Source of the DNA: Phycisphaerae bacterium
GTDB taxonomy: Bacteria; Planctomycetota; Phycisphaerae; Phycisphaerales; UBA5793
DNA length: 64,000 nt
NCBI GenBank assembly: GCA_039794345.1
Contig: JBDIVQ010000002.1
Span: 6,558 to 70,557, forward strand
Reading direction: 5' to 3'
A program made the translations under genes and the position numbers. This document shows positions 25,197 to 63,500 of the stretch, piece by piece (the first letter of the stretch is position 1; the number at the start of each line of letters is the position of its first letter). Below the pieces are notes generated by a model. That model was not told the DNA's origin, made no database searches, and saw nothing but the letters and a program-made list of their open reading frames with translations.

Positions 25197-25199
25197 CGA

Positions 25200-26876: not shown

Positions 26877-26918
26877 GGTGGTGGTCCCTTCCCGCGTGGT
26901 CGCGGTTGGTGGTGCGTT

Positions 26919-27389: not shown

Positions 27390-27690
27390 GGTGTTGGCTC
27401 CTTTCGCCGTTGTTCGCGGGCGGCGTACTCCGCCTCGCATTGCACACATGAGGGCATGAACAGCGCGACAATGCAAGGGCAATTGCCGAGGATTCCAGCA
27501 CATTTCGCAGATTGTGGGGAAGTGCCGATCAATGTGGGGAACCTCGCCGCCGACAGCGCGCCATGTGCTAGGAATCTGCTAGGCCGGGCCGAACATCGCG
27601 CCGTGTTGGCCCACGTTGGGCCGCGCTCGCGGGTGGTACAACGCCTCGACTCGCGCGCGCCAGGCGCGACGTGCGCTACGGAGGGCCGCC

Positions 27691-27945
27691 GTGCCTACGC
27701 CGCGTGACGACCAGCCCGATCGCCCGGGCGGCCTCAACCCGGCCGCTCTATCGGTGACCGACACGGCGCGGCTGTTGACGCGCGTCGGCGGTCAGGCGAT
27801 CAGCGAGGCGATGATCGAGCGCGACATCGACGACGGCGCGCCGACCAATGGCGACGGCACGATCAATCTGGTGCATTTCGCCGCGTGGCTCGTGCGCGAC
27901 ATGGCCGAACGCGGCAGCCCCGGTGGAGGCGATCGTGGCGATTGA
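27691..27945 (+). CDS. candidate terminase small subunit (HTH)
   Basis: GTG 27691 has GGAGGG 6 nt upstream. LSVTDTARLLTRVGGQAISEAMIERDID...INLVHFAAWLV. Lies directly upstream of and overlapping the large terminase. Confidence 0.45.
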   Translation: MPTPRDDQPDRPGGLNPAALSVTDTARLLTRVGGQAISEAMIERDIDDGAPTNGDGTINLVHFAAWLVRDMAERGSPGGGDRGD

Positions 27946-30423: not shown

Positions 30424-30511
30424 GGGACTAATCCTCTTGCAATCCCGCACAAAACCCGTTACACTCACCCAGCCTGCTTTTCACTTGCGCTGGCCCGCAA
30501 GGAGAGACGCC

Positions 30512-33525: not shown

Positions 33526-33726
33526 ATGGCTGAGTCCGACATCGAGCAGGCGATCAAACAGAGCGCCCAAGGCCCCGCCAAAGCGCAAGGCGACTCGGGC
33601 AGCGTCGAGCAGCACGGCCTCGCGGAGCAGATCGAGGCGGACCGCTACCTCGAGAGCAAGAAGGCGAGCCGGGGCAAGGGGCTGAATGTGAAGTTCGTGC
33701 AACTGGAGCCGCCGGGTACGGCGTGA
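33526..33726 (+). CDS. small head-module protein preceding the portal
   Basis: MAESDIEQAIKQSAQGPAKAQGDSGSVEQHGLAEQIEADRYLESKKASRGKGLNVKFVQLEPPGTA. Very high third-position GC. Overlaps the portal start. Confidence 0.55.
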   Translation: MAESDIEQAIKQSAQGPAKAQGDSGSVEQHGLAEQIEADRYLESKKASRGKGLNVKFVQLEPPGTA

Positions 33727-46360: not shown

Positions 46361-47158
46361 TCAGGCTCGAGCAAGCACTCCGCTCTCGCGCAAACCCTCA
46401 AAGTAGGAAACGAGCCGCTCCACATGTGGCCGATAACTGACGAGAATACCCGCTTCGATGTTGCGGTGCTGTGCCGCGTCCGTGAAGTTCGCTGACGTGA
46501 TGAGCGCGACTGTTCGATCGACCACGATGCACTTTGCATGGAGGCTCGCCCTAACATGCGAGGCGGGCAGGAGCGAACGAACGTCGTAGTGAAGGGCCGG
46601 GCGTGGAGTCCAGGGCCATTGCCGGGCAAAGAAGTCTTCCGTGAATCGCTGGACAATCTGCTCCGGGAGTGAAGTGTCCGTTGGCCGCCGCGGAATGTCA
46701 AGGCAGAACCAGACCCGAAGGCTTGGATGCTCTGCAACCCGTTCTGCGAGGCGTTTGAAGAGTTCACCGCCTCCGTGCACTGCGTATCCGACGAGAAGCA
46801 CCTCTGTGTGAGCACCGACAAAGAGTTCATTCATCACCGCAAACGTATCGCGCGTTGCGACTCCGTCAACGTGAGGTCCGGATAGCACGAGCTCAAACAG
46901 TGAATCGGGAGCGTCGGTCGCTTCTCGTGTGGTCGCCACATGCTCGAACAGCGTGGCGATCTGTTCAAGTGACCAGCCAGATCTCGATAGCCCTTGGATA
47001 AAGTCCTCTGCGTGCTTCTGCCCAGAGGTGCCGAGCACCTGTCTCAGGGTGTGCGCAGGGACTGCGCCCGACGGCAATGATTGACGGCACAGCGCCGCCA
47101 GCTGCCTGAGGCTCGCAGGTGTGGTGGCTTTGATGAGAGAGATGCCATCGGGGGTCAC
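46361..47158 (-). CDS. drmC: DISARM DrmC, PLD-family nuclease
   Basis: HAKCIVVDRTVALITSANFTDAA is the HxK(x)4D PLD motif. The GTG start has a GTGA overlap with drmB. Confidence 0.85.
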   Translation of the reverse strand: MTPDGISLIKATTPASLRQLAALCRQSLPSGAVPAHTLRQVLGTSGQKHAEDFIQGLSRSGWSLEQIATLFEHVATTREATDAPDSLFELVLSGPHVDGVATRDTFAVMNELFVGAHTEVLLVGYAVHGGGELFKRLAERVAEHPSLRVWFCLDIPRRPTDTSLPEQIVQRFTEDFFARQWPWTPRPALHYDVRSLLPASHVRASLHAKCIVVDRTVALITSANFTDAAQHRNIEAGILVSYRPHVERLVSYFEGLRESGVLARA

Positions 47159-48945
47159 GTGAAGAACTCCGCGTTCAGCAACTCGACCGTAGGTACCACC
47201 AGAGCTCTGTCGAGAAAGTCATTGTGCTGCTCACAGCACGTCTCGGCGATCAGTACGCACCCATGACAGGCGCTTCCCTGCAAGGGCTGGTGGTCGTGTC
47301 GATCAGGCACATGGAACGCGCACACAGGATCGTTAGAGCACAGGCGTGCTTGATCGAGCGCTCGCTTCATGTGGTGCTTGATGCGACGGCCAGCGGCCAC
47401 AAGTCCACCGAGTGTTCCCTCTGCATCGCTCGATCCAGTGTACAGGAGGATACCGTACTGGCCGGCGCTAGGGCGGCAATAGATGCGCTCGCGCAACGAA
47501 GACGACGGATACCCGCATTCTAGTGAGATGGCGGTGATTAGGAGGTGGGCCAAAGTGTGGAGCATGAAGTAAGTGGTGCCCGGAAACACCCGTGTACTCC
47601 CCTCGTGTTCGTCGAGCCACACCTTGAACCCGACCTGGAGCGCGCGGTCCCTCTGCTGAACAGGATCTCGATAAGTCCATTCGGCTATCGCGGCGGGGTT
47701 GAACTGGAGAAAGATACCCTCGCCACGATTTTCGATCGCGGGCAGCCATGAAGTGTCAATGGCAAGGGGCGCTCGTTGGACATCGATCGACAGCTCGCCG
47801 TCGATGTCTGGACCGGCGGCCTCGAATCTCGTGAAGCCCACCTGTGCGACGACCTCGCGCAGCCGGTGCACGAGCACAACCCGATCAATGCCTTGCATCT
47901 GCGGGGAGTGCCACGCAGCCACTGGGAGCGTGCGTGCGTAGAAATCGCCTTCTGGTTGATCAGACCCGAGTTCATCGCGAGTAGTGCTCAGGGCCTCGAA
48001 CTCCGCCTCCTTGACTGGTCGGGTGTCGGAAGCCTGCCCCTCACGGATCCGTCGTATCGCCGCCATGATGTCGTCTTCAGCAAACTCCTTCAGTTGCGCG
48101 GAAACGAGCGGCTTCCTGAGCTCGTATCTCAGCTCCTCGATGGACTCGACGGCGGCTAGGTGAGCATCCCACAGTGTCCGCACCGCCTCGTCCACCGTCG
48201 CGTGTGCCTCAGGAATGGAGATGACGGCCAACAACTGAGGAAAGTAGGCGTTGCTCGCGCTCCTGATGAGCAAGCGGCTTGGAACCCCGCAGCGCTCCTT
48301 CGTGAGCGGACCAAGCCAGGGGCGTGACCCGTCGCAGCTACCAAGAGCCTTCAGGTCGCGTTGAGCGGCTTGAGCCATCCGACGTTCCGCGCCGCATCCA
48401 CACCGCACCCAGACAGAATCGAGGTCGCCGGTCGTGCCTCGCTCTTCGAGATACATCTCGCGTGCACAGGCATCCCCTTCGCCATGAACGAAGGCGCGCC
48501 AGTCGATGTCTCCAACATGGCCTCGCTCGCAAGCGCGGACGAAGCGCACCGGGACGACGGACTGCTTCTTGCCGTCACTGTCCGTACAGCGCCCCTTTTC
48601 AAGATCATTCCACTTGACGAGTCGCCGCGCACGATGGCCCCGGGGTGTCATCTCCGCCTTCTGTACAATGAACCACTCAGGAAAGCGGTAAGTGGTAATG
48701 TCGGGCGTAAACCCTTTGTCCTCTATCGCGGGAGGCGGCTTACGAAGCGTCAATCCCTGTACCTGCAGCAACTCCTCGAGCTTGTGGACCAGTCGTGGCT
48801 CTGAGATCGTGGGCAGAGCTGTGTTCCTGCTGTATCGCCATCCTTCGAGGCCGCCGATAATGACGGCGTGGTCCGGTAAGTCCACCATGGCCCCCGGACC
48901 GAATGTGGTGATGAGCTGGCTGGAGCGGATTTGGGGCTTCGCCAT
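47155..48945 (-). CDS. drmB: DISARM DrmB, DUF1998 protein
   Basis: 596 aa. C-terminal Cys cluster ...QGSACHGCVLIAETCCEQHNDFLDRALVV typical of DUF1998/MrfA zinc-binding domains. TAATG overlap with drmA. Confidence 0.8.
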   Translation of the reverse strand: MAKPQIRSSQLITTFGPGAMVDLPDHAVIIGGLEGWRYSRNTALPTISEPRLVHKLEELLQVQGLTLRKPPPAIEDKGFTPDITTYRFPEWFIVQKAEMTPRGHRARRLVKWNDLEKGRCTDSDGKKQSVVPVRFVRACERGHVGDIDWRAFVHGEGDACAREMYLEERGTTGDLDSVWVRCGCGAERRMAQAAQRDLKALGSCDGSRPWLGPLTKERCGVPSRLLIRSASNAYFPQLLAVISIPEAHATVDEAVRTLWDAHLAAVESIEELRYELRKPLVSAQLKEFAEDDIMAAIRRIREGQASDTRPVKEAEFEALSTTRDELGSDQPEGDFYARTLPVAAWHSPQMQGIDRVVLVHRLREVVAQVGFTRFEAAGPDIDGELSIDVQRAPLAIDTSWLPAIENRGEGIFLQFNPAAIAEWTYRDPVQQRDRALQVGFKVWLDEHEGSTRVFPGTTYFMLHTLAHLLITAISLECGYPSSSLRERIYCRPSAGQYGILLYTGSSDAEGTLGGLVAAGRRIKHHMKRALDQARLCSNDPVCAFHVPDRHDHQPLQGSACHGCVLIAETCCEQHNDFLDRALVVPTVELLNAEFFT

Positions 48946-51900
48946 TACTCATCCCCCCAATCCCTCAAGCCCTTAACGATCAGGTCTACATTGGCCTCGA
49001 CATCTCGCATTGAGCGATTGGCGCGAAATCGCTGGTGGATTGGGGGCAAGCTATCCAGGTCTGGGTCAAGGAAGTCGTAGATGAGGCGCCGGAATGACCC
49101 GGCCTGCTCCTTCTGGTATTGCATTCGTGCACCCTCATACTGAGCGCGATCGGCGAGCCGCACCCAGTCGTCGAGAAGCTGCTGGCAGCGGTCGAGCACC
49201 TTGGTGGCGAGTTGGTTCGCGTCCGCGGGGGAGAGCTCACCGTCATGCGCTCTGGCTCGTTCTGCGATCCGAATCGCGAATGCATCGAGCTGAGAGCGTA
49301 CCGCCAGCACGGCCTGTGCGCCCGCAGCGGGAGTCAGCGTAGCGTTGCCCTGCCTGCAAAGGCCGATCAGGGCAGCGGCAAGGGCTCGATCCAACGCTCG
49401 CGGGGAGAACGGCGTGACACTCGTCGCCTCCACGCTCCGGTAGAATGTCTCATGGAACGCTGTGAATCGCTCGTAGTGCGATCGATCGCGGGGCTTGTGG
49501 ATGTTGAGAAGAGCGGCCACGAGTCCGGGCCTCTCCGGATCACGACCCACTCGGCTGGTGGCTTGGATGTACTCGGCACTGGTCTTGGGCTGGCCGAGCA
49601 CGACCATGAGGCCGAGGCGAATGATGTCTAGGCCGACCGAGATCATGTTGGTCGCCAGAGCGACATCGACATGCTCGTCGCTCCTGAATGGCAGCGCGAG
49701 GCGGCGTTTGGCCTCGGCAACCTTGTCGGTGGATACACGGGAGGTCAGCTCCACAACCTCGTAGTCAATGGTCCTGTCGGCGAAGAGCCGATCCTCCGGT
49801 TCGCGACGGCGTCGGCGACCGTACTCAATGAGCCGAGTACGAACCTCGTCCTCAATGATGCGACGGCTTCCACCCAACTCGCGGAGGGAGTTAAAGTACC
49901 CTAGCACGGTCATGTATGGGTCGGCCGGATTGGCCGGGTTCTGATTCCCGCCTGCTCGCATCCACGCATCCTGTGCTGCGCTCAAGAGCGCGAGCACCGC
50001 ACGGAGCATGACGACCTTGAGGCTGCGGCCCTGGGCAGCGATGCCGATGTATTCACGCGCGGGACTCTCTGTGGCGGGCAATGTTTCGGCGAAGAACGAG
50101 TCCTTTCGATCGGGCCCTGGGCAGGGGAAGACCTTTGTCCGCAAGTAGCCGAAGAGCGCTCGGATCTGGCTGTCCGCACGGCGCACGGTGGCCGTGCTGG
50201 CGATGATCTTGGGCGGCAGAGTAAGGCCGTCGACCTCTAGGCTCGCGAGCGCACCGATCGCGCTTTCGTAGAGGCCCGCGATGGTCCCGAGCGGGCCCGA
50301 GATCAGGTGCAATTCGTCCTGGATGATGAGGTCGGGCGGGAGGAGTGCTCCACTCGGCAAGGGCGTTCCCTTGCCGGGGTCACAGGGTCCGTAGAAGCCA
50401 TTCGCGTCGTATCGGTTCACCTTGCCAAACAGCGTGCCGGTGTGTCCGGTCCACGGTAATGCCGCGAACTTGTCGACGGTCGCGATGATGAAACACGGGA
50501 GGCGACGGTACAACGGCTCGTCGATCGCGACGATCGGAAGGTATCGGTCACCAGTAAACGGGCATCGGTGGTTCGCGCAGTGCACAAGGAGATCTGTTGG
50601 TGCCCTCAGGTTGGGTGACAATCGGAAGGAGTTGCGCGTGAACTTCGTACCGCACCATGGGCACTCTTCGAGTGGAATCGGGGAAGGCTGCCGGTCATCC
50701 TTGAGGAACCGCGTGGTCTTGGTGTAGGCCGTGTACTCTCGATGAGAGCTTTTGTCGCCCTGGTGGCCCATTCGGTTCGGTGTTGCCGCCTGGCCAACCC
50801 AAAGCCCGATCTCGAATGGCCACTCTCCCAGCGCTGGCTTGTTCGCCTCGCGCTCGAATTCCAGTGCGCAGATCAGTGCCGCAGCGCGACCGAGCTGGTC
50901 GAGCGTGAGCAGCCGCAGCGTGTACCGCATCAGCACACTTACACCCGCGCCTTGGATTCCGGGGTTGCGCAATCGACGAAGCACGAGCGTGAATGCGGCC
51001 AGACCCAGATATGCCTCGGTCTTGCCACCGCCGGTGGGAAAGAACAGGAGGTCCACAACCGCCCGGTCGTCATGCCGCGGGTCAACGATGCCGGGAAGCG
51101 TCATCAGGATGAACGCGATCTGAAACGGGTGCCACTTCGGGGCCGTCACCTTGTCCGGCGTTGAACTCTGCTGGATGGCGAAGCGTTGTCTCGCGGCCCG
51201 TGCCATGGCACGGTTGGCAGTAGCGAACGCCTGCAGGACCTGAGGATCCTTAAGTAGTGCGATTCCTGCCTCGATGCGATCCGATGCGATGCGCGCTTCC
51301 GCGAGCATGTCCTGTGCCGTCTGTCGATGGGCGCGTGACAGTGAGGTCAAGACCGTTTGCTGCTGCGCGATCCACGCCCTGTAGTGAGTCACCAGCGGGC
51401 TCAGTTTGGAGGCGGCGTCGGCTGCGTTCGTCAGGCTGCCGAGCGATTCCATGCCAAGCTCGACATCGAGAATCGCCGCCGGAGCGACACGTTCAACCTG
51501 CGCCGTGGGGATCCATGTCGTCCGAACCGTCCGGCAAGTCTGCTCTGTCTTGACTTCCTCTGCTGAGACGCCGTGCCCAACGGCGTACTCATACGCATCG
51601 CGATACTGGAGATCCGCGATGCGGTGGTCCCATTCGTCGGCGACATCGCTGCCGCGAGGGTCCGGCCGTGGCACAAATCCGGGGCTGCAGTGGAGCGTCA
51701 ATCGCACCTGGAACACGAACGCCTTGTACGCCGGTTCGGTCTGACTGCGGAAGTTGACGACAAAGATCGATACTGCCCTCGTCGCGGCGGGCAAGCCGGC
51801 GACACCCGCATCTCTGCTTGTCACGATGAGCCGGATTCCTCCGCTGCCCGGAACATCTACGTCTGCGGGCCTCGAACCCGGCGGCGGAATGGGCACAGCA

Positions 51901-52460
51901 ATGGTGTGCGACTGCGGCGTCCGACGCCAGCCCTTCTTCGCCGGCTTGCCTGCCTCTTCCGCATCGACGGCCGACTCGCCCGCGAGTTCGCCGGCCCCTG
52001 GGCCGAGGCTCCGTTGCGCCGCGGCATCATCGCCTTCGCCGGCCGCGGGCTCGCCTTTCCCCTCCGGATCCTCGAAGGCGTAGTCGCCCCAGTCGATATC
52101 CGCCTTGATCGAATCGACCCTGCCGGGGACGAGCACACTGAGCCCCATGGAACTGGGCAGGAGACTGCGGCGGGCCGCTGACTTCTCGGGATCGGCGCCA
52201 TCATCCAGACCGCCTGGCTCTGCGGGTGAGTCAATCTCCTCCGTCGAGGTCGCGTCGAATCGCTGGACGACATCCGCGGACGCGGGCGTGAGGAAACCAG
52301 TGAGATACCACCGCGTGGGCGGTTCCGGCAGCAACTCGTTGGCGAACGCGTGGTCGTTCGTCGGTCCGACGAGATCAAGGCGAAGTGCCTCGACCAGCGT
52401 CGATCGCACCTCGACACTCGTTGCAGGCAGTTGCGTCTCACTCGGCTGTAGATTCCCCAT
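48945..52460 (-). CDS. drmA: DISARM DrmA, DEAD/DEAH-type helicase
   Basis: Motif I (LLFFPTGGGKTEAYLGLAAF) and motif II (LIIQDELHLISGPLG). C-terminal helicase motifs (ATNMISVGLDIIRLGLMVV, QATSRVGR). 1171 aa. Confidence 0.85.
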   Translation of the reverse strand: MGNLQPSETQLPATSVEVRSTLVEALRLDLVGPTNDHAFANELLPEPPTRWYLTGFLTPASADVVQRFDATSTEEIDSPAEPGGLDDGADPEKSAARRSLLPSSMGLSVLVPGRVDSIKADIDWGDYAFEDPEGKGEPAAGEGDDAAAQRSLGPGAGELAGESAVDAEEAGKPAKKGWRRTPQSHTIAVPIPPPGSRPADVDVPGSGGIRLIVTSRDAGVAGLPAATRAVSIFVVNFRSQTEPAYKAFVFQVRLTLHCSPGFVPRPDPRGSDVADEWDHRIADLQYRDAYEYAVGHGVSAEEVKTEQTCRTVRTTWIPTAQVERVAPAAILDVELGMESLGSLTNAADAASKLSPLVTHYRAWIAQQQTVLTSLSRAHRQTAQDMLAEARIASDRIEAGIALLKDPQVLQAFATANRAMARAARQRFAIQQSSTPDKVTAPKWHPFQIAFILMTLPGIVDPRHDDRAVVDLLFFPTGGGKTEAYLGLAAFTLVLRRLRNPGIQGAGVSVLMRYTLRLLTLDQLGRAAALICALEFEREANKPALGEWPFEIGLWVGQAATPNRMGHQGDKSSHREYTAYTKTTRFLKDDRQPSPIPLEECPWCGTKFTRNSFRLSPNLRAPTDLLVHCANHRCPFTGDRYLPIVAIDEPLYRRLPCFIIATVDKFAALPWTGHTGTLFGKVNRYDANGFYGPCDPGKGTPLPSGALLPPDLIIQDELHLISGPLGTIAGLYESAIGALASLEVDGLTLPPKIIASTATVRRADSQIRALFGYLRTKVFPCPGPDRKDSFFAETLPATESPAREYIGIAAQGRSLKVVMLRAVLALLSAAQDAWMRAGGNQNPANPADPYMTVLGYFNSLRELGGSRRIIEDEVRTRLIEYGRRRRREPEDRLFADRTIDYEVVELTSRVSTDKVAEAKRRLALPFRSDEHVDVALATNMISVGLDIIRLGLMVVLGQPKTSAEYIQATSRVGRDPERPGLVAALLNIHKPRDRSHYERFTAFHETFYRSVEATSVTPFSPRALDRALAAALIGLCRQGNATLTPAAGAQAVLAVRSQLDAFAIRIAERARAHDGELSPADANQLATKVLDRCQQLLDDWVRLADRAQYEGARMQYQKEQAGSFRRLIYDFLDPDLDSLPPIHQRFRANRSMRDVEANVDLIVKGLRDWGDE

Positions 52461-52475
52461 CGCACCCCACGTCGC

Positions 52476-52655
52476 TCAGTCCTTCTTGACCACAACCGCT
52501 TTGCCACCGAGAAGCTTCTGCTTCCACACAGGCCACTGCTCAACCTGTGCGCTTGCCTTCTTCAAGTGCGTCACAAGGGCTGCCCGGGATTGCTGCACTT
52601 TGACAGCCTGCTGGCATTTACCCTTGGGGTCACTGGTCTGAATCCGTGTGGTCAT
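52476..52655 (-). CDS. 59-aa lysine-rich protein overlapping the deaminase 3' end
   Basis: ATG 52655 is preceded by AGGAGG embedded in the deaminase coding sequence. MTTRIQTSDPKGKCQQAVKVQQSRAALVTHLKKASAQVEQWPVWKQKLLGGKAVVVKKD. The stop lies 15 nt before the drmA start. Confidence 0.5.
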   Translation of the reverse strand: MTTRIQTSDPKGKCQQAVKVQQSRAALVTHLKKASAQVEQWPVWKQKLLGGKAVVVKKD

Positions 52656-54147
52656 TGTGCTCCTCCTGACGGGCTTTATCAAACATGTTACTGGCGATCA
52701 GCTCGAGGTCCAAGTACGATGCAGGCAGCATTTGGAGCCTCAAAGTGCCGTTCTCTGGCCTCCACTTCAGAGCTGCCCCATCCAGATTCTTTCGGTTGAG
52801 ACGCCTCCCAGAGCCCAATCTGAGCGAGAACAGGTCGAAGAACCGACGCGGGCCGACGCCGACGAACGGCTCAAAGTGTACGCGCTCGACATCGCCCTCG
52901 GATGCTTCAGCTGACAGCCCGATACAGATCGAGTCCTGGTGAAACTCGCCTGCCTTCGACTTCACATACGGCTCGATGAAGACCACTCGTTCAATACCAG
53001 CTGCCACAATGTGCTTTGCACAGTTGTGACATGGAAAGGTGGTCGAGTACAGCGTCCCGCCCGAAACGGGGATGCCTGCTCGTGCGCATGCGAGCAGCGC
53101 ATCCATCTCAGCATGAACGACTCGGCCGTACTCAGTCAGATCGCGAATCCGACTTTCCTCCAGTACGGTTCGCACCTTCTCGGCTTCGAGACCATGCTCC
53201 GCACTTCGGGAGACGATGTCATCGATGATCCGGTTCTGCTCGACCTTGTTCGAATCACTCCCCCTCGCGAAGTCCCGGCCGTCGCTCGGAAAGCCAACGT
53301 CTTCAGGCATCTTGTCCGTCGCCGGCCAGTACTGACCGCCGAGAGCCTTCGGGCAGTCATTCGCGCCCGTTGCCACAACCTGCTCACCCACATTGATCAC
53401 TGCACCAACCTGCGGCGACAAATCCGCTGATCGCAACGACGCAGCGAACGCCAGGAACATGCAGAATTCATCTAGCGTCGGCGTCACGTACGGATGGCCA
53501 AACAGCAGCGCCAGCAGTCGCCAGATACTTCGCTTCAGCCGATCTTCGTCACCATCAATACGAAGGAAGAAATCAGATAGGTGAAATGTATCCGTCACAC
53601 GCTGACCATGGTCAAGATGCTCATCAGCATCACGTTCGATCAGTTTCTTCGCATTCTCTTCTGAAAGCCGCTTGTCGCTCTTCAGGTATTCCAGTCGCCG
53701 CTGTTCATTGGCGTGAACGCCCACCAGGTAGAACCCCTGCGGGTAGATAGCCCGAAGCCGCTCCACCTCCTCTGGGTGCTTGAGTGAACTCACGATGTAA
53801 GCGCGCTTGGGGCGAGGCTCCGCCTTGCCATCCTCGCCTTCCGCTCGGCCCTTACTGATGACGCTCGCAACTCCCAATGCCAGAATGGAGTTGTCCCCTG
53901 AGTTGAGCCTCGCTTCATTGCCTGCATCCATCAACGAGGAGATGCGTTGGAATTCATCGTTCTCGTCCCACTTCTCGGGCTCGACAAGAAGTGGGATGAT
54001 GTGTTCCGTGACTCGAATGAGTTCGACGTCGTAGCCGATGATTTTCAGGCGATTCTCAAGCGCATCGCGCACCTTGCCAAGTTCTGTCCCCACAGCACCG
54101 ATCAATCCAATGACCAGTTCCGACTCTGCATAGGCGTCTTCAAGCAT
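52630..54147 (-). CDS. AvcD-like antiphage deoxycytidylate deaminase (N-terminal kinase-like domain plus a dCMP/dCTP deaminase domain)
   Basis: Zinc deaminase motifs HAEMDALLACARAG and PCHNCAKHIVAAGIERVVF, plus SPQVGAVI. N-terminal LVIGLIGAVGTELGKV is a P-loop-like start. 505 aa. Confidence 0.8.
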   Translation of the reverse strand: MLEDAYAESELVIGLIGAVGTELGKVRDALENRLKIIGYDVELIRVTEHIIPLLVEPEKWDENDEFQRISSLMDAGNEARLNSGDNSILALGVASVISKGRAEGEDGKAEPRPKRAYIVSSLKHPEEVERLRAIYPQGFYLVGVHANEQRRLEYLKSDKRLSEENAKKLIERDADEHLDHGQRVTDTFHLSDFFLRIDGDEDRLKRSIWRLLALLFGHPYVTPTLDEFCMFLAFAASLRSADLSPQVGAVINVGEQVVATGANDCPKALGGQYWPATDKMPEDVGFPSDGRDFARGSDSNKVEQNRIIDDIVSRSAEHGLEAEKVRTVLEESRIRDLTEYGRVVHAEMDALLACARAGIPVSGGTLYSTTFPCHNCAKHIVAAGIERVVFIEPYVKSKAGEFHQDSICIGLSAEASEGDVERVHFEPFVGVGPRRFFDLFSLRLGSGRRLNRKNLDGAALKWRPENGTLRLQMLPASYLDLELIASNMFDKARQEEHNDHTDSDQ

Positions 54148-54216
54148 CGTCCTGCTCCGATTGCGCAGCGATCCCCAGTTGTATACGATACGGCAAGAGC
54201 CCGTGGTGGCTGGGCT

Positions 54217-56127
54217 TCACAGTTCAACCCCCAGCAGCAAGTCGTCTGACGGAACGCGAGCAAGCTCCACCCGGATCAAGTCTGGCGGAATGTCCGTCTC
54301 TTGCGGCCTTGTTGTCGTGCTCACGATCAGCTGGAACACCGGCGACGAAGTCTGATGCCAGGCAGCGAGCCGGCGCATCAGCCGGTTGAAGATCCCAATC
54401 TCCATGTCGGCCTCGCGAGGGCTGTCGAGGATCATCATTCGGGGGTGATGCCCATATCCATCCATGGCCGATTGAAGCGCCGCAAGGTCAAGGCTCAGAA
54501 CGAGCGCCGACGTGGAGGTCGCTTCCCCAGGGGCACCTGTCCGGCCCACGATGTTGAGGCGGATGGCCTTTGACTCCATCGACAACTCGAAGCGACGGCT
54601 CGCGCCGACAAGCTCTTCGCATAGTGCGGCAAACCGCTTTGGCAGCCAAGCCCGCGTGGTGGCCAGCGACTCGCGAAGCTGACTCTGCTTCTCGCGCGAC
54701 TGATTGATCTGGGTGGTCAGTTCATCGTGCTCGCTCATGGCCCGCGGCAGGCGCGACGTTCGCTGAATATGCCGCTCAACTCGCTGATCCATCGCGCGAT
54801 GAAGAGCAATCCGTCCATCGATGCCGGCCGTGAGGGTGGAGAGGCCCACCTCAGCCTGCCGCAGTTCGGATCGCCGCGCCGTCAGATCGGCGCTGAGTTT
54901 CGGCGTTGTCGCTCGCAACTCCTGTTGCCGCGCCTTGATCTGCTCAAGCTCCCCCTCCAGGTCGGCCACGCCGTCCAAGTCCGGGCTGGGTACCTGCTGT
55001 CGAGCGATCTTCAACTTCGCGGGGCAGTCGTCTGTCTGCAGGTCGCAGAGTGCCGCGAACTGCTCGTACACGGTCCGAGGTCGCTCTCGCCGCCTATTGA
55101 TATGTACAGTCACTGCGTGGGCCCGAGCGGCAAGTGACCTCTCCTCAGCGGTAGCGTCCGCCAGTGACTGGAATGCACGCTCGTAGCTCGCGCGAATGGT
55201 GGCGAGGCCCAGCTTCTTGACTTCCTCCTCGCGAAGAGCGAGCAGTCTCTGCGTCCGTTGCCGTATCAACTCCTGCTCAAGTTGCGAGATGCCGACCGCG
55301 TTCGATTCAAGCAGGGCCTGAAGATCGTTCGTAACCGCTGACTCCTCCGCGCCAATCTGCCGTTCCAGGCTCTTCACCTCGTCGGCCAGGGTCTGCCGCC
55401 GCTGGAGTAAGTCGTCATGCTCCTCGAAGAGCACCTTCTCGCGGTTGTCCATCAACCCGCACACAGAGCGCAGGACGATTGATGCGTCCTCCTTGTCCAG
55501 CACGTGCGTCCCTGAATCGGTCTCCACATGCCGCCACACGAGCGGATGCGCATAACGACACTTCTGATCCCTCGCGATCCAGGCGAGCACATCGAGCCAC
55601 TCGATTGGCCGGCGGGCGTGTGTCAGCAGCGGTGAGGTGACGGGCTCCAGCACTGCGTCACCCAAGCGCCGAAGGAATTCGGCGTAGGCGTCTTCCGGCT
55701 GTTCAGCATCCAGGAGCTCTCGCCACTCGCTCACTCGCGCGGCTCGGGCAACGAGCGTGGAGGGAGCGCCCAGAGGCCGGAGCACTGCCCAACCCTCTCC
55801 GCCTACACGAAACTCGCCGACGACAACACTGTCCGGCAATGCCCGACGGATGGCGACTCGGGTTTGGCTGTCCGCGTATCGAGCTTCGCCGAGAAGGTAG
55901 CGAATCAAACGGGTCAGAAGCGTCTTGCCGACATCATGGCCGAGCGCCTCAACCGCATCGGGTGCTGGTTGCCGCGTGACGATGAGGTTCAGGCCCAGCT
56001 CGAACGGGATCTCGCGGATGATGTCAACAGGCTCGACTTGCCGGAGCAGCACGAGCCGCCGGATCCACACCGGGGGCTCGGACGTGACCGCCGCTGGCGG
56101 AGGATCAGGGAACAATGTATTGGACAT
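54217..56127 (-). CDS. coiled-coil ABC/SMC-like ATPase (DUF3732/ABC-3C-like)
   Basis: N-terminal FELGLNLIVT...LGHDVGKTLLTRLIRYLLG (degenerate Walker A). About 300 aa of central heptad-rich coiled coil. C-terminal TSTSALVLSLDLAALQ...HPRMMILDSPREADME (signature-like, Walker B, D-loop). A strong GGAGG precedes the start, which overlaps the drmMI end by 23 nt. Confidence 0.65.
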   Translation of the reverse strand: MSNTLFPDPPPAAVTSEPPVWIRRLVLLRQVEPVDIIREIPFELGLNLIVTRQPAPDAVEALGHDVGKTLLTRLIRYLLGEARYADSQTRVAIRRALPDSVVVGEFRVGGEGWAVLRPLGAPSTLVARAARVSEWRELLDAEQPEDAYAEFLRRLGDAVLEPVTSPLLTHARRPIEWLDVLAWIARDQKCRYAHPLVWRHVETDSGTHVLDKEDASIVLRSVCGLMDNREKVLFEEHDDLLQRRQTLADEVKSLERQIGAEESAVTNDLQALLESNAVGISQLEQELIRQRTQRLLALREEEVKKLGLATIRASYERAFQSLADATAEERSLAARAHAVTVHINRRRERPRTVYEQFAALCDLQTDDCPAKLKIARQQVPSPDLDGVADLEGELEQIKARQQELRATTPKLSADLTARRSELRQAEVGLSTLTAGIDGRIALHRAMDQRVERHIQRTSRLPRAMSEHDELTTQINQSREKQSQLRESLATTRAWLPKRFAALCEELVGASRRFELSMESKAIRLNIVGRTGAPGEATSTSALVLSLDLAALQSAMDGYGHHPRMMILDSPREADMEIGIFNRLMRRLAAWHQTSSPVFQLIVSTTTRPQETDIPPDLIRVELARVPSDDLLLGVEL

Positions 56128-59100
56128 CGTCCACCTCCACCGGCCAGGCGCGCTTCAGTGCTTCGCCTTCCCTGAACAGCGCTGCCGCCTCCTTCGCCAT
56201 GTCCGCGTGCTCTGGTTTCGTGAGCGTGATGCGTTGATCGGTTCGGGTCACGACTCCGCCGTCCGAAAGCGTCGCGTAGCCCATTGCCGTGAGCGACTGC
56301 CAGAGCTGTTTGAGCGACCCCAGGGGATCCTGCGTGCTGTTGGCTGCCGTGGCGCTGCCATCCGCGTACAACTCGCGAGCTCGCTGGTTTACCGCCAGAA
56401 TGAACATCCGCTCGGCTGCGACCTGCCGGACTCGCGCGGGCGCGAGTTCGTCAAGGATCGCCACCATCAGCTCGACGGCCTCCAGCATCGGAACCGGCTC
56501 GACTTCGAACCCGCCTGCTGGCGCCTTGAACAGGTCTGGGACGGACGCCGCGACTTTCTTACGACCCCGCTTCGCTGCCTTCGGTTTCTTCTCCGCCGCC
56601 TCCGCGGCCAGGCCTGTTCGGCGTTCCTCCTCGGCGCGCTGCTTGTTCAGTTCCAGCAGGCGGGCGAGGACCTCGTCGCGGGTCTCCTCGGGCCAGCGGC
56701 AGCGCCAGGCGAGGCGCTTGCGGGACGGTGGCAGCTTGGCGGCGAACGCCAGGGCCTCGGCCGCGGTGGGCCACCAGAGTTGCTCGGGGACTTCGAGGTC
56801 CGGCGGCAGGTCGTCATCCTCGATGTCGAGGTAGTCGAGGCCGAAGCCGCAGACGGGGTGGATGTCGGTCCAGTCGTAGGCGTCGAGCACGGCGCGGTCC
56901 ATGGCATCGTGCAACTCGCGCAGCTTGAGGATGTCCGCGTCGCCCTCGGCCGGGTCGTGGAAGCGGTTGTAGGTCGCGGTGAGCCCCTCGTTGTTGCGGA
57001 CCATCAGATCGGCACGAAACTCGTAGTACGCCTGGCCCGCCGCCTCCATCCGCGGATTCGTCTCGAAGCCCGCGGGGAGTGGGTAGGTCTCAAAGCAGTC
57101 TGTCGGGGTGTAGCGGAGATCGTCTTTCATGGACGAGGCAAAGAACCGTGCCCACGCTTCGTGAGGCTGGCACTGCAACGTGCAAAACGCCCCCCATGCG
57201 TCAAACGCCAGAACCACGAGCGTATTGGCGAACACCATGGCAGGCGGAAGCATCGCAAAACTCATGTGCGGCGTCGCGCCGCAGTTGATGACGAGCACTC
57301 GAGGGAGGCCGACGATGGCGGCGTAGAGTTCGCCACGAGGACGCAGGTAGAGCCACCAGTTCTCCTTACCCCACTTGTCTTTCTGGGCCAGCCTTTCGGG
57401 CTTGACCCGTTCCTCTACAAGAGCCAACAACTCAGGCCAGCGACGATGAACCTCTGCCTTGCTCAACAAGCCAAAGTTGATCGCATAGCGGCTGTGCGCC
57501 AGTGATGGATCGTTGTTGACTTCCTCTCCGCCGATGTATGGATAGATCGCGTGCTGGTTGTCAGGACGTGCCCTAATCAGAGCTTCCATCTCCGTCAGAG
57601 AAGAAGCAGCACCGCGGCCGCCCAGGCCGTCGAAGGTGAAGCCCATGCCCAAGATAATGACGCCTTGAAAACTCTTCCCCGCGTTTGCTTGCAGGACTTC
57701 GGGGTTGTCGTGAGTGCCGGCGTGGAAAAGATACGCAGAGATCATCGGCACGGGCCGTCCATCGAGTTCGAACGGGCCGGGTAGCTCACCCTTGTGTATG
57801 TGGACGACGCTGACCACGACGGCGGCCTGCCCGGGCCACTTGTAGCGGCGCCGGGCGGCGTAAATCGTGCCACCATGCGTGCAGATCCAACGCAGCCCGG
57901 TAGTGCGGGTATCGCCCTGACCGATGGTGTTGGTCGCGATGAGCCCGAAGCACCCGCACGGGCGGAGCAGGTTGAACCCGCGCCGGAAGAAGTGGGCTAC
58001 GAGATCGGCGTTTCCATGTGCTTCTTCATGCAGTGCCTGCAACCAGTCCAGGTAGTGCTCGCGGTTGCTATTGATCAGCGTGTTCTTGCCTGCAAAGGGT
58101 GGATTGCCGACGATCGCATCGAACCCCGAATCATCGCGGCCGAACACTTCGGGGAACTCGATTTCCCAGTGAAACGGCGCCACCGGTTGCTGACCACCGC
58201 GCAAGTGGCTAAGGGTTGCCTGAATGTTGGTGAAAGCCTTCGCATCGGTCCGCTGCTTCCAAGCCGCGAGCAGGCCGAGGTACTCGTCGCGCGTCTCCTT
58301 CCGCTCCCTGGGCTTGGACCCGTCGAAGAACGACGCGACGCACAGGTCGCCCGCGAGCCGCGCCGGCTCCAGCGCCTCATCCGCGACGGCCAACTTCTGC
58401 GCCTTGTTCGCAGGCGGCATGTCATCGCCCGCGGCGAGGATCTGGCGGCGTTCTCGCAACGCCCTGTCCATCTGCTCCGCGAGCTTGCCCTGCACAAAAG
58501 TCGGCTCGCCCGTGCCCTCCAGGTTGAAGTGGGCGATCTGCTTGCGCGTCAGGCCCACGAGCGAATCGCCCGTGCGAAGCGAGTGGTCGAGGAAGGTGAA
58601 CGGGTGGTCCTTGGCGAGCGTGGCCAGCCAGAGGGAGAGTTTGGCGAGGTCGGTCGCCATCGGGTTCTTATCGACGCCGTAGAGGCAGCGCTGGGCGATG
58701 AGGCGGCGGGCGTAGAGCAGTTCATCCTCATCGGCGGGGATGCGCGGCTTGTAGCCGTGGTGCGCCCACGAGGCGACGAGCTGATCCGCGAGTTGGCGGC
58801 AGGCCTCGACGAGGAACGCGCCCGAGCCCATGGCCGGGTCGCAGACCTTCAGGTCGAGGATCTGGTCGGGCTCGGGGTGCTCGCCGAGTTGCTTGAGGAT
58901 CGGCTCCAAGGCCTTGCGGACGATCGGCTCGGTGAGCGAGCGCGGTGTGTAGTGCGAGCCGGTCTTGCGGCGCTCGTCGGTCGGGACCAGCACCATCGTG
59001 CCAGCAGATACCGGCTGCGGCGTGGCGTTGCGGGCGATGCGGCGTTCGAGCGCGGCGAGCAAATCATCGATGGCGGCGGCATCCTTCACGGCCGCGGTCA

Positions 59101-60556
59101 TGGTGCTGGTGAGCTTGTAGTCGGTTTGGTCCTGGATGGCCTTGGCGCGGTCGGCGGGCTTGGTCTTGAGGAGTTCATCGAGGTCGACCGGCACGGGGGC
59201 ACCGTGAGCCTTGGCGGCCTTGAGGGCGATGGTGGCGCCGGTGGCCCGCTCCAGGCGGAAGCCCATCATGGTCTCGTAGACCGAGCCGATCTGCTCGACA
59301 TCGAGCGTGCGGTAGGAGAGCCGCTGGCCGTCGAGCAGGAGGAGCTTGCGGAGGACGCGCTCGATGGTGCCGTCGGGCACGAGGGGGAGCTTCTTGTCGG
59401 GGAGCGTCTGCCCTTCGAGGAACGGGTAGCGGTCGGGGTCGAAGAGGTGCCCCTCGCGGGCTGGCATTGCAAGGAGCGGGTGCTGGCACCCGAAGAAGAC
59501 GGCGCGGCAGAGGGCGATGATCTGCGGCCACGCGCCGTAGCGGTGGTCCATCGTGTCGGGGTTCTGCTCCGCATCGGTGCGGAGCCGCTCGAAGAGGCCG
59601 TGGATGGAGTAGTTGCGGACGTAGAGGTCGGAGGTGGGCATCAGGCCGCGGTCTTCGGCGTAGAGCAGGAAGACGAGGCGCATGAGGACGGTGAGCAGGC
59701 CCTGGTAGATGGAGTCCGGCTGGTCTTTGAGGACGGACATGAGCAGCTCGGCGTGGGCGCGCTCATCGGCGGCCTGAAAGCCGCGGAGGAGTTCGTAGAG
59801 GGCGTCGAGGACCTGTTGGGCGAGGGTGTTGGAGACGCGGGCCTGGTAGTCCCGGCTGCGCTTGAGGAGCGCGGGGAGGCGCGCTTCGGTGGGTGCCGAG
59901 AGCAGGCGCTCGCGGCTAAGGAGCATCTCGAAGGCCGCGACGATGGGGCGACCCGCGGTCTCGACCATGGCCGCGACGGGGAAGGTGACTGTGCCAGTGT
60001 TCTCGCCGCGGGGCGCGTAGACGAGGCGGAAGTGCGTCGGTGTGGTGAGCAGACCGATGGACACCTCGGCCTCGCGGAGGAGACGCTCGAAGCGGCGGGT
60101 GTGGGAAGCGGTCCAGCCGGAGAGTTCGGAGTCGCGCTGGGCGTCGAGGTCCGTGCCGAGCGGGAGTTCCTGGATGAGAAGCATCCACGGGCGTTCGGGG
60201 TCGGCGGGCTTGGGCGGGACGAAGGCGTAGGTGGGTTCGAGGGTTTCGCCGAACTCCTTGAGCGGGATCTTCAGGGCCTCGGGGATGGGGTGCTCAGGCG
60301 TGGCGCCGATGATGCAGTCGTCGGGCCACTCAAGGAACTCTCGGAGGATGCCGAGTGTCGAGCGGATGATGGGGTAGGGCTTCTCGCGGTCGCCGGCTTC
60401 GGTGACCCGTTCAAGAAAGCGTTGCTGCAAAGGGGCGGCGTTGCGATTGGTCGCCACCTGTGCATCGGCGAGCGCAGCCGGCGACACGACCAGGCCATCG
60501 GGCTGGAGGTACCCGATCCACGTCTGGTGGTCGCGGATGATGGGGTCAACCGCCAT
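56105..60556 (-). CDS. drmMI: DISARM DrmMI, large N6-adenine DNA methyltransferase
   Basis: HYTPRSLTEPIV, motif I (VCDPAMGSGAFLVEA) and motif IV (AIVGNPPFAG). 1483 aa. TGATG overlap with drmD. Confidence 0.85.
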   Translation of the reverse strand: MAVDPIIRDHQTWIGYLQPDGLVVSPAALADAQVATNRNAAPLQQRFLERVTEAGDREKPYPIIRSTLGILREFLEWPDDCIIGATPEHPIPEALKIPLKEFGETLEPTYAFVPPKPADPERPWMLLIQELPLGTDLDAQRDSELSGWTASHTRRFERLLREAEVSIGLLTTPTHFRLVYAPRGENTGTVTFPVAAMVETAGRPIVAAFEMLLSRERLLSAPTEARLPALLKRSRDYQARVSNTLAQQVLDALYELLRGFQAADERAHAELLMSVLKDQPDSIYQGLLTVLMRLVFLLYAEDRGLMPTSDLYVRNYSIHGLFERLRTDAEQNPDTMDHRYGAWPQIIALCRAVFFGCQHPLLAMPAREGHLFDPDRYPFLEGQTLPDKKLPLVPDGTIERVLRKLLLLDGQRLSYRTLDVEQIGSVYETMMGFRLERATGATIALKAAKAHGAPVPVDLDELLKTKPADRAKAIQDQTDYKLTSTMTAAVKDAAAIDDLLAALERRIARNATPQPVSAGTMVLVPTDERRKTGSHYTPRSLTEPIVRKALEPILKQLGEHPEPDQILDLKVCDPAMGSGAFLVEACRQLADQLVASWAHHGYKPRIPADEDELLYARRLIAQRCLYGVDKNPMATDLAKLSLWLATLAKDHPFTFLDHSLRTGDSLVGLTRKQIAHFNLEGTGEPTFVQGKLAEQMDRALRERRQILAAGDDMPPANKAQKLAVADEALEPARLAGDLCVASFFDGSKPRERKETRDEYLGLLAAWKQRTDAKAFTNIQATLSHLRGGQQPVAPFHWEIEFPEVFGRDDSGFDAIVGNPPFAGKNTLINSNREHYLDWLQALHEEAHGNADLVAHFFRRGFNLLRPCGCFGLIATNTIGQGDTRTTGLRWICTHGGTIYAARRRYKWPGQAAVVVSVVHIHKGELPGPFELDGRPVPMISAYLFHAGTHDNPEVLQANAGKSFQGVIILGMGFTFDGLGGRGAASSLTEMEALIRARPDNQHAIYPYIGGEEVNNDPSLAHSRYAINFGLLSKAEVHRRWPELLALVEERVKPERLAQKDKWGKENWWLYLRPRGELYAAIVGLPRVLVINCGATPHMSFAMLPPAMVFANTLVVLAFDAWGAFCTLQCQPHEAWARFFASSMKDDLRYTPTDCFETYPLPAGFETNPRMEAAGQAYYEFRADLMVRNNEGLTATYNRFHDPAEGDADILKLRELHDAMDRAVLDAYDWTDIHPVCGFGLDYLDIEDDDLPPDLEVPEQLWWPTAAEALAFAAKLPPSRKRLAWRCRWPEETRDEVLARLLELNKQRAEEERRTGLAAEAAEKKPKAAKRGRKKVAASVPDLFKAPAGGFEVEPVPMLEAVELMVAILDELAPARVRQVAAERMFILAVNQRARELYADGSATAANSTQDPLGSLKQLWQSLTAMGYATLSDGGVVTRTDQRITLTKPEHADMAKEAAALFREGEALKRAWPVEVDDVQYIVP

Positions 60557-63500
60557 CAGGCGCCCTCCGGGATGAGGTAGACGATGCCCAGGGGCTCGAT
60601 GCGGGCTGACGCAACGGTGTAGAAGCTCACGATGCGTGCGGGCTCTCGCTCCAGGTCGTCCTCCACGTTGTCAATCCATCGCTGCCAGTAGCGGCGATTG
60701 GACTCGTAGGTGCGCTTCTCATCGTCTGTCGTGAAGAGTTTGAGCTGGGAGTCGGCTGACTTGCCAAGTTCGGACTCGATGCGCTTCTTCTGGTCTTCGA
60801 GGATCCGGCGCATCTCCTTGGACTCGGCCTCGCCGCGTTCCTGGAGTTTCGCCTCGGCTTCGGCGCGGGCGGCGTCGCCGCGGCCCTGGATGAAGGGGAG
60901 GAGTTCGTCGAGGTCGCGGGGGAGGGAGGCGAGGTATCTCGCCGCGGCGACTTCGGGCAGGCCGCGTTGCGCACCGGGCTTCAACGCGGTGGTGAGCAGC
61001 TCGACCGTGCGGGCTTCGGCTTCGCGGGCGTACGGCTTGAGAGGTTCGTGCCGGGCTGAAGGGTCTTGCCAACGGGCGGTGACGGTGAGCACTTCTTCGT
61101 GAAGGCGGCTGGCGCCTGGGCCATAGAGCGAGAGCCGTCCGAGGAGCACGACTCGGGGCACATTGTCAGAACTCTGCGCGATGCACGCGCGCGAAAGGTC
61201 GTGGTGCACGAACCCTTGGGCAAGGAAGCGGCCGAGGAGCCGCTGCGCGATGCGATGTTGCAGGTGGACCTGGACGATGCTGTCGTCGATGCCCTTGGGC
61301 GGCTCGAAGACGATCGGCCTGATCGGGGCTTCGCGACGCCAGGAGAAGTCGCGCTTGCCGTTCTCGGGAAGGCTTCTGAGCGTGTCGAGCGTGGGCGCCC
61401 AGGTCGGGTCGCCGCCCTTCTTCGCGTCGAGCCGGGGGAAGATGTAGCGGCCGGAGCCCGGGGGGTCCTCGACGAGCGGCTCGGCCTTGTTGATCTCCAG
61501 CGCGCACGAGAGGGCGTCGCGGAAGGATTCTTCGTCGAACGCGATCCACTTGCGAGCGTCATCGACTCGTCGGTCGAGGCCCGCGATCTGCTCGCGAAGG
61601 TCATCCTGTCGGAGCCGTGCTGCTTCGAGTTCCTCTTCCGTTGTCGCCTGCTTCTCCGGGTCGAGACTGGCGCTGTCGATCGCCCCGGCCATTCGGGCGG
61701 CGTCGGCATGGCGGATGCCGTGCTTGAGCGTGTCAGCGAGCCGCGATTCGAGCACCTGCGAGAGACTCCCGAGTTCCTCGCGGATGGTCTTCGTCTTCCG
61801 CACGAGGGCCTGGAGGACGCGGTCCTCCGGTCGCTGGAGGTAGACGAAGTAGTGGCAGTACACATTGTCAGAGGGCTGTAGCTTCCGGTCGATGCGGCCG
61901 TTGCGCTGCTCAAGGCGGCTGGGGTTCCACGGTACGTCAATGTGGAACAGGTTGTGGCAGTGGGCCTGGAGGTTGAGACCCTCGCGAGCGGCATCGGTGG
62001 CGATCAGAATCCGCACGGGGTGCTCGTCGGGCGGGGCGTTGAAGGCACGCTTGATCTGCTCGCGCTTGTTCGGCGGGGTAGGGCCGTGAAACACTTCAAT
62101 GCGCTCATCTGCTCGGTCGGTGCCGGCGACCGCCGCGCGCAGACAATTGAGGACGTACCGCTTCGTATCCTCGTACTCGGTGAAGAGGATGACGCGGAGG
62201 TCCGTCCACCCTGCACCTCGCGACGGCTCACGCTCGCCGGGCAGGCGGAGCCCGGCACACATCTTCTCTCGCATCCACTGGATCAGGTGCCGGATGCGTG
62301 CATCCGGCAGGCCGCGTTGCTGCTCGGCGATCTGCTCCATGCGTTCGAGAAGTTGCTTCTCGCGATTACGGTCCGCACGGGTCTGGTCGCCGGTCGTGGC
62401 TTCGGTGGCGGCCTCGAACTGGTTGTCTTCCAGGGCTGAGAACTCTTCCTCGGTCAGTGCGGCCCGGTCGTCGTCGCTGTCGATGCCGCTACCAAGAAGG
62501 TCGGCGTCCTCGGCTGCAGCACTGCGGTCGGAAGCGGCGGGGAGTGAAGCCTGTTCTCGCTCCCAGATACGCTCCATCGTCTTGCGGTGGACCCGGAGCG
62601 TCTTCGCGAACGCCTCGACCGAGGAAAGCAGCCGCTGCTGAAGCCCGGAGATCAGAAGCCCTGCGGCGGCCTGCTTGCGCTTGCTCTCTCCCTCAACCCG
62701 TCGTGCGCGAACCTCGCGGTATTCGTTGAGAAAGCGGGAGAGTTCGAGTTCGGGTGCATCCTCGGGCAAGCCCTTGATGTCAACCTGCACGACATGCCGT
62801 TCGGGAAAGCCCCCGGCGACGGTGCGCAGGTCATCCTTGAGGCGGCGGACCATCACGTCGTCGAGGTTGCTCTTGAGCACTTTGACGCCGCGGCAGAATC
62901 GTTGCGAGTCGAGGATCTCCAGCAGGGCGCTGAAGCTGTTCGAGTGGCCATTGTGAGGCGTCGCCGAGAGGAATAGTCGATGTTCGAAGCGTGGGGCAAG
63001 GTCTCGAATGGCACGAGTGATTCGTGAATCGATGGCGTACTTCGCACCGCTGGATGGCGCGGCATGGTGGGCTTCGTCGAGAATCAGCATCGATCCCGGA
63101 CGCAGATTGTCGAGCCAGTCGCGTAGCGGGGCGGCGTACGTTTCGTCGATCAGCAGGCGGTGGGACACGAGAAACCGTGGAAAAGTCGTCCACGGGTTGA
63201 CCCCGAATCCTCGCTCCTCGCGCACACGCTCGACATACTCACGGTCGAGGATCTCGAACACCAGTCCGAAACGAGCCTCCAGCTCATCCTTCCACTGCGG
63301 CAGCATGGAGGGCGGGCAGGCGACAACGATGTCCCGGATGCGCTTGCGGAGCAGCAACTCCATCGCGATGAGGCCCGCCTCAATGGTCTTCCCCAGGCCA
63401 ACGTCGTCGGCGATGAATATGTTGACGCGAGGAAGCCGGAGGGCCTTCCGCAGCGGTTCGAGCTGGTACGCGTCGATTCGGATTCCTGCACGGAAGGGAG

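Follow-up and report, generated by a model that had tools for sequence, protein, structure and literature searches.

A conserved small protein gene overlaps the end of an antiphage dCTP deaminase gene within a class 1 DISARM operon and has relatives in lytic phages

The 64,000-nucleotide (nt) stretch of a Phycisphaerae bacterium genome analyzed here (contig JBDIVQ010000002.1; hereafter the window) carries on its minus strand a gene for an anti-phage dCTP deaminase of 505 amino acids (aa) at positions 52630..54147 and, overlapping its 3' end, a small open reading frame (ORF) of 59 aa at 52476..52655. The larger product had been labeled an AvcD-like antiphage kinase-deaminase in the original prediction, which was made from the DNA letters alone, and profile searches bear the label out. 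The protein scores 467.1 bits against the NCBIfam equivalog NF041025, passing the cutoff of 400, and it matches the PADLOC dCTPase model with an E-value of 6.9e-164 as well as the Pfam family dCMP_cyt_deam_1 (PF00383). The intact zinc motifs and the kinase-like N-terminal domain that had been described were also located. Reading of the sequence places the HAE motif, which provides a zinc ligand and the catalytic glutamate, at residues H345-A346-E347 (53107..53115, minus strand) and a PCHNC version of the PCxxC zinc motif at P372-C373-H374-N375-C376 (53020..53034, minus strand), and both are invariant in an alignment of 37 sequences, 36 of them homologues. When an AlphaFold2 model of the enzyme was compared with the PDB using Foldseek, the C-terminal half resembled the dCMP deaminases 2w4l, 5c2o and 7fh4, with the bifunctional dCMP/dCTP deaminase of PBCV-1 among the matches, and the N-terminal half resembled P-loop kinases, including the adenylate-kinase-related protein 3h0k/3lw7 and dephospho-CoA kinases. 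Within the kinase-like half, the segment G17-A18-V19-G20-T21 has an invariant G20, and the other four residues are kept in at least 90% of the aligned sequences. A sequence search of solved structures returned no full-length AvcD-like structure. By its domains and motifs, the 505-aa protein is typical of the antiphage dCTP/dCMP deaminases and predicted to share their activity; such enzymes deprive phage DNA synthesis of deoxycytidine nucleotides.

The small ORF begins with an ATG at 52655, and its stop codon ends at 52476. Its start and the end of the deaminase gene share 26 nt (52655..52630), which are read in different frames, and a perfect AGGAGG ribosome-binding site lies 6 nt 5' of the ATG, buried within deaminase codons (52662..52667, minus strand). 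The 59-aa product contains 10 lysines, so that the lysine-rich character, the overlap, the change of frame and the embedded ribosome-binding site all agree with what had been predicted. A family alignment identifies residues 27-49 as the conserved core (LVTHLKKASAQVEQWPVWKQKLL; 52509..52577, minus strand), in which W41 and W44 are invariant and P42 and K45 are kept in at least 90% of the sequences; we refer to the family by this WPxWK motif. Modeled alone with AlphaFold2, the protein forms a helix at residues 12-39, a kink at the W-P step and a short helix at 41-48, with a mean per-residue confidence (predicted local distance difference test, pLDDT) of 71 overall and block means of 82-90 for residues 21-50. 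An identical protein has been annotated by gene callers on three other contigs. No Rfam match and no unusual RNA fold (z = +0.57) were found in the small-ORF region.

To see how widely the small ORF accompanies the enzyme, 80 genomic loci with deaminase relatives at 48-65% identity were collected, and homologues of the small ORF were sought by tblastn with the 59-aa product and by ORF extraction. At 53 of the 80 loci an ORF of about 50-75 aa lies directly at the deaminase stop codon, on the same strand and in a separate frame, and encodes the core motif F-x-x-H-L-x-x-A-x-x-x-V-x-x-W-P-x-W-K-(Q/K)-x-x-L. The remaining loci comprise 6 with a degenerate core, 2 that are too short to judge and 19 without a small ORF. 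Loci with the small ORF range over Planctomycetota, Myxococcota, Gamma- and Betaproteobacteria, Bacillota, Lentisphaeria and others, and those positive by tblastn include Vibrio, Pseudomonas, Photorhabdus, Enterobacter, Acinetobacter, Paenibacillaceae and Cohnella; the DISARM context described below is shared with only one of them. The arrangement is conserved along with the sequence. The start of the small ORF overlaps the deaminase end in 44 of the 53 loci, and a Shine-Dalgarno core (GGAG, GAGG or AGGA) precedes it in 47 of the 53, compared with 13% of control ATGs. No natural fusion of the deaminase to the small protein was found among the 80 loci.

The nucleotide sequences point to selection on the protein. 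Mean pairwise identity in the core is 0.50, 0.615 and 0.35 at codon positions 1, 2 and 3, respectively, the core residues are retained while the G+C content of the core varies from 0.30 to 0.58 across loci, and in close pairs the ratio of nonsynonymous to synonymous substitution rates (dN/dS) of the small ORF is 0.09-0.54. Because of the codon-position pattern, the dN/dS below 1 and the lack of an RNA fold signal, the small ORF most plausibly acts at the protein level and not as an AvcI-like RNA. By these sequence criteria it is a genuine gene, conserved, translationally coupled and under purifying selection, well beyond what chance would give. The suggestion that the deaminase has a real, co-translated small partner was thus, if anything, understated when it was first made from this one locus.

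A profile built from the family and run against 1.84 billion cluster representatives retrieved 810 of them at E <= 1e-3, and most of the 150 best-scoring matches are 46-75 aa long. There is no significant match for the family in Pfam, NCBIfam or PADLOC, a sequence search of solved structures found no related one, and members for which a name was found are all called "hypothetical" or "uncharacterised." An instructive example is the Escherichia coli member WP_000021256.1 (sequence beginning MSIENGFIKHVVATKKIINEWPEWKKNMLGG), a "hypothetical protein" present on 743 contigs, whose gene immediately follows that for a 506-aa deaminase in a P4-like element, in the interval from psu to the integrase gene. 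From the alignment and the models, members are expected to share an amphipathic helix followed by W-P-x-W-K, with tails that are variable and probably disordered. A resemblance to the villin headpiece (Pfam VHP) was considered. Weak VHP matches occur in only 4 of 37 members, the best with E = 0.006, and the similarity centers on the motif LPxWKQxxLKK; because headpieces of villin and dematin score only 5 and 1.6 bits against the family profile and Foldseek returns no fold match, we regard the resemblance as limited to the motif. Our literature search, in which few subscription journals were covered, found no published protein partner of a dCTP deaminase or of AvcD, and the small protein and its phage relatives appear to have gone undescribed so far.

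In bacteria, as judged from gene neighborhoods, the WPxWK family travels with the kinase-deaminase. It is also found in phages. A tblastn search of GenBank phages, with candidates scored by the family profile, identified copies in the Erwinia jumbo phage Kaldavass (XPP60433.1, 38 aa, L106 2992-3108; 45 bits, E = 8e-7 at Z = 1.8e9) and the Xanthomonas jumbo phage XbC2 (UYE98502.1, 37 aa, L107 2992-3105; 42 bits, E = 6.5e-6 at Z = 1.8e9). Scores of 32-35 bits were obtained for proteins of Pectobacterium phage Peat1 (AKN21161.1, 108 aa, L111 1066-1392, a gene located 1.07-1.39 kb into the genome record), Pectobacterium phage phiTE (phiTE_068, 92 aa, L112 1336-1614), Pantoea phage AAS21 of the Demerecviridae, the family of T5 (gp111, 158 aa, L113 1303-1779), Vibrio phage P018-4 (XDG30861.1, 178 aa, L108 2492-3028) and for an unannotated ORF of Pseudomonas phage 15b. 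The module proteins of the cultured lytic phages are labeled "hypothetical proteins." Only 4 phage records carry a relative of the kinase-deaminase, and none of them is a module-bearing phage named above. The small protein of the window is weakly similar to the phage family phrog_38465, of unknown function, and it and the phage proteins have weak matches in common to phrog_38465 and phrog_29728, the latter likewise of unknown function.

Longer family members that were examined are not adjacent to a kinase-deaminase, and several place the module in other settings. The 230-aa protein P0217 (L087 5001-5693) consists of a stand-alone dCMP deaminase with a WPxWK module joined to its N-terminus, and its phage-like contig also encodes a ribonucleotide reductase, a PhoH-like protein and a protease, all with PHROG matches; the fusion suggests contact between module and deaminase. 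No WPxWK module was found on the dCMP deaminases of the GenBank phage records that were checked. P0209 and P0190 each contain two tandem modules, and the gene of P0190 (99 aa; L097 1781-2471) overlaps the end of a NUDIX hydrolase gene, which on gene order is another tie of the module to a nucleotide-pool enzyme. The neighbors of P0223 are small genes that run in one direction, and some of them have PHROG matches. Taken together, the phage copies and the dCMP deaminase fusion favor a direct functional link with the deaminase. Among the more distant deaminase relatives, those of Burkholderia phage phiE094 (L109 1-3301) and of loci L104 and L105 are preceded by AAA ATPase genes (PF13476/PF13175). 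The 73-aa product gp46 of phiE094, encoded 3' of such a distant deaminase, was considered as a family member and set aside as an unrelated protein that lacks the WPxWK motif; it hints at further accessory-gene variants in the deaminase family.

Sixteen of the 19 loci without a small ORF form one clade, joined by the E. coli locus L085, and in all 16 the deaminase is extended at its N-terminus by a further domain of about 65 aa, followed by a disordered linker. This domain has the pattern F.G...EL..KL....G.W....NQK.FR...GGVLNWY.STGTI.FQG and is carried by L003, L005, L007, L008, L012, L023, L040, L058, L062, L078, the clade L039-L079 and L085; the precomputed Pfam annotation of the carriers lists no domains other than deaminase ones. 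The deaminase of the window does not have it. Across the sampled sequences, antiphage dCTP deaminases carry the domain optionally, and its presence in the clade without small ORFs is consistent with alternative accessory modules. Because the small ORF and the N-terminal domain occur together in 11 loci, the two are not strict alternatives, and mutual exclusion in the strict sense is ruled out. The two E. coli loci without a small ORF illustrate the variation: L085 encodes a 589-aa deaminase with the N-terminal extension, and L086, on plasmid pWL7562-2 (4.6 kb), encodes a 527-aa deaminase with a small ORF upstream of it, at the position of AvcI. The latter plasmid consists of little beyond a replication gene, the deaminase gene and this upstream ORF, which scores -1.2 bits against the family profile and so shows no similarity to it.

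At the locus itself, a class 1 DISARM operon surrounds the pair, a setting on which the original prediction was silent, as it was on the SMC-like gene upstream and the prophage nearby. All genes of the operon are on the minus strand, in the order drmD, drmMI, a gene for a LmuB-like SMC protein, the deaminase gene, the small ORF, drmA, drmB and drmC. DrmD, an SNF2 helicase (60556..63924), scores 1041 bits in PADLOC and has the Pfam domains SNF2-rel_dom and Helicase_C; DrmMI, an N6-adenine methyltransferase (56105..60556), scores 1313 bits and matches Eco57I, MmeI_Mtase and N6_Mtase; the DrmA helicase (48945..52460) is matched with E = 3e-283, DrmB (47155..48945), with an MZB/DUF1998 zinc-binding domain, with E = 3e-85 and the Pfam family MZB, and DrmC, a PLD-family nuclease (46361..47158), with E = 1.3e-57 and the Pfam family PLDc_2. 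Spacers are short or absent: the start of the LmuB-like gene overlaps the end of drmMI, drmA starts 15 nt past the stop of the small ORF, and no terminator-like site was found within 52000-56500. The five drm genes have the canonical order and single orientation of class 1 DISARM (Ofir et al. 2018); unlike in that system, three genes are inserted here between drmMI and drmA. The first of them encodes a 636-aa protein (54217..56127) with a PADLOC match to LmuB (E = 2.9e-14), in which the ATPase motifs look degenerate by eye (GHDVGKT for Walker A and ILDSP for hhhhDE). The operon does not amount to a Lamassu system: the LmuB match is only moderate, and PADLOC finds neither LmuA nor LmuC in the operon.

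The same slot is filled differently elsewhere. In a diverged member of the Planctomycetota (L001, 1769-17762) the deaminase gene and small ORF occupy it without the SMC gene. The DISARM proteins of the two operons (46361-63924 in the window) are 40-60% identical, which indicates that the embedded pair has been kept over considerable divergence. Metagenomic loci L094 (8001-9917) and L095 (5024-7009) have the LmuB-like gene at this place followed by other cargo, in L094 a gene for a 631-aa protein with no Pfam or PADLOC match, and no ORF of about 59 aa lies between that gene and drmA. Because L001, L094 and L095 carry differing inserts, the drmMI-drmA interval behaves as a cargo site, and on this comparison of gene orders the deaminase and its small gene form a cassette carried as cargo by a class 1 DISARM operon.

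A prophage-like block on the plus strand adjoins the operon (window positions ~13900-46200) and includes genes for a primase-polymerase/AAA_25 protein (17659-19923), a ParB-methylase (21868-23385), a terminase large subunit (27848-30232), a trypsin-Sel1 repeat protein (30437-32275), a lambda-type portal (33723-35231) and a capsid protein (35185-37194). Very large ORFs without a Pfam match lie at 3452-8941 (1829 aa) and 23382-27707 (1441 aa). The only tRNA gene of the window, for tRNA-Asn (2960-3034), stands shortly before the very large ORFs and may be where the whole island integrated.

The obvious point of comparison is the AvcID (DcdV-DifV) system of Vibrio cholerae (Hsueh et al. 2021/2022; PLoS Pathog 2023, PMC10511110). 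According to the founding preprint, AvcI, formerly DifV, is encoded immediately 5' of the deaminase gene in the same orientation, in a gene of about 170-220 nt, and because stop-codon mutants of it still inhibit, it works as an RNA. AvcD homologues are toxic when unrestrained and are held in check by AvcI post-translationally; decay of AvcI on transcription shut-off leads to activation of AvcD. AvcI lacks sequence conservation, and its regions hold small ORFs that proved irrelevant. The pair described here resembles AvcID in its homologous deaminase and, as proposed below, in a labile partner from the same operon whose loss would release the enzyme when a phage halts host expression. It differs in that AvcI is a non-coding RNA on the 5' side, whereas the partner here is a protein-coding gene on the 3' side with its amino acids under selection. 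That the small ORF might itself be an AvcI-like RNA was rejected on its position downstream of the deaminase gene and on the missing Rfam match and fold signal. The original prediction had the small protein acting instead of AvcI. At this locus the idea is reasonable, in that the gap between the LmuB-like gene and the deaminase start is a mere 69 nt, compared with the ~170-220 nt of an AvcI gene, and a 5' RNA gene of the AvcI type is not found. It is not one that sequence can prove, given the lack of conservation of AvcI, and an RNA overlapping the upstream gene would formally still be compatible with the layout. Many other small-ORF loci have less than 120 nt upstream of the deaminase and therefore no room for an AvcI-sized gene.

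Similar comparisons can be drawn with two other groups of systems. The anti-phage dCTP deaminases of E. coli AW1.7 and U09 share with the enzyme of the window the P-loop kinase-like and zinc deaminase domains, the HAE and PCxxC motifs and defense-gene neighbors. As described in the preprint of Tal et al. (2021/2022), however, the system consists of one deaminase gene, which was cloned together with its promoter region, no downstream gene being mentioned, whereas a second conserved small gene is present here and in about three quarters of close relatives. Type II toxin-antitoxin modules with the toxin gene first, such as higBA and mqsRA, likewise have two overlapping co-translated genes and a small partner with disordered-looking tails. 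The adjacency to a small protein partner, the 26-nt overlap and the Shine-Dalgarno sequence are all found at this locus, and the layout recurs in 44 of 53 loci. Unlike in those modules, the "toxin" would be a nucleotide-pool enzyme, and no DNA-binding domain was found in the small protein, either among Pfam and NCBIfam matches, weak ones included, or in the model, which shows only a helix and, past a kink, a second short one.

These observations are brought together in a model to which we give about an even chance: the deaminase has a co-translated protein regulator, most likely a labile inhibitor, that has been copied by phages as a counter-defense. The small protein would be made off the deaminase mRNA by coupled or re-initiated translation at the buried AGGAGG and would bind the deaminase as an antitoxin-like brake in need of continuous resupply. 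A phage that shuts down host gene expression would cause the brake to be lost and the deaminase to fire, making the small protein the protein counterpart of the Vibrio AvcI RNA, and lytic phages might supply their own copy of the brake, as the module alone or fused to other domains, as a counter-defense. Phage-encoded antitoxin mimics are known in this role, T4 Dmd and the pseudo-ToxI of phage phiTE being examples. The inhibitor or adaptor role put forward in the original prediction is, like binding, inhibition as opposed to activation, lability and the counter-defense function, a step that we infer. A labile inhibitor is favored because the AvcD homologues that have been tested are toxic alone and need a brake, because activation follows host shut-off, because this locus has no room for AvcI and because keeping the brake on is the simplest reason for lytic phages to carry copies. 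The wider proposition, that the missing second component in most antiphage dCTP deaminase systems is the WPxWK protein, a brake in place of the AvcI RNA, and that the orphan phage copies are a new anti-defense family keeping the deaminase off, is a serious possibility, although we would stop short of calling it probable.

Several points weigh against this model. In an AlphaFold2 pseudo-fusion of the deaminase and the small protein, run with the alignment of 36 deaminase homologues, the enzyme folded well (predicted template modeling score 0.74) and the small part remained at pLDDT 38-65, so that no confident docking was obtained. The order with the toxin first and its partner second is the rarer one among protein antitoxins, and coupled translation would give a roughly 1:1 output and not an excess of antitoxin. 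Many other small-ORF loci have long upstream spacers, roomy enough for an AvcI-like RNA, and 11 loci combine the small ORF with the N-terminal domain, which are therefore not strict alternatives. In addition, the tandem copies, the NUDIX neighbor and the unrelated fusions fit a general docking or adaptor module equally well, and decoys for an activator or sensor would explain the phage copies just as well.

The last two points lead to an unlikely but not far-fetched alternative, in which the small protein is a positive factor, namely a sensor, activator or adaptor that recognizes a phage or host component, or tethers the enzyme to one, and turns the deaminase on, and the phage copies are decoys that sequester the trigger or the enzyme. 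The many architectures, with tandem modules in P0209 and P0190, fusions and the coupling to a NUDIX gene, are typical of a portable docking module, and the placement of the small gene downstream of the enzyme and its coexistence with an N-terminal accessory domain in 11 loci would also suit such a role. The AvcD homologues tested in the literature are nonetheless active and toxic alone and require an inhibitor, and mimicry of a host brake is the simpler reading of the phage copies. It is distinctly improbable that the small protein is instead a structural subunit or assembly factor for the folding, oligomerization or stability of short-form deaminases, with no part in signaling. Near 1:1 coupled translation, strict adjacency and purifying selection focused on a short helix-and-turn core are what such a subunit would lead one to expect, but it would leave the orphan copies in lytic phages without a kinase-deaminase unexplained, and one entire deaminase clade does without the small ORF. 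That the small ORF has no link to the deaminase at all, being a DISARM leader or accessory gene before drmA, an AvcI-like RNA or a chance ORF, is an idea prompted by the mere 15 nt that separate it from drmA and by the irrelevant small ORFs of AvcI regions. It is highly improbable, and the comparative data largely refute it: more than 50 loci outside DISARM have the small ORF after the deaminase, the DISARM operon of L094 with its other cargo shows no ORF of about 59 aa before drmA, the codon-position pattern and dN/dS indicate selection on a protein, and there is neither an RNA structure signal nor an Rfam match, AvcI in any case lying 5' and not 3' of avcD.

The enzyme of this locus is a new member of a known family, and what appears to be novel is the small partner together with its phage relatives. 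Defense by dCTP deaminases is currently seen as the work of one gene, or of a protein-RNA pair in Vibrio, and the small protein is a concrete and testable candidate for the control that silences and triggers most members of the family. Roughly three in four close relatives carry it, including E. coli members in a P4-like satellite context, and small partners of this kind are overlooked by defense-gene catalogues. The modules of lytic phages are candidate anti-defense genes, and DISARM operons possess an internal slot for other defense cargo.

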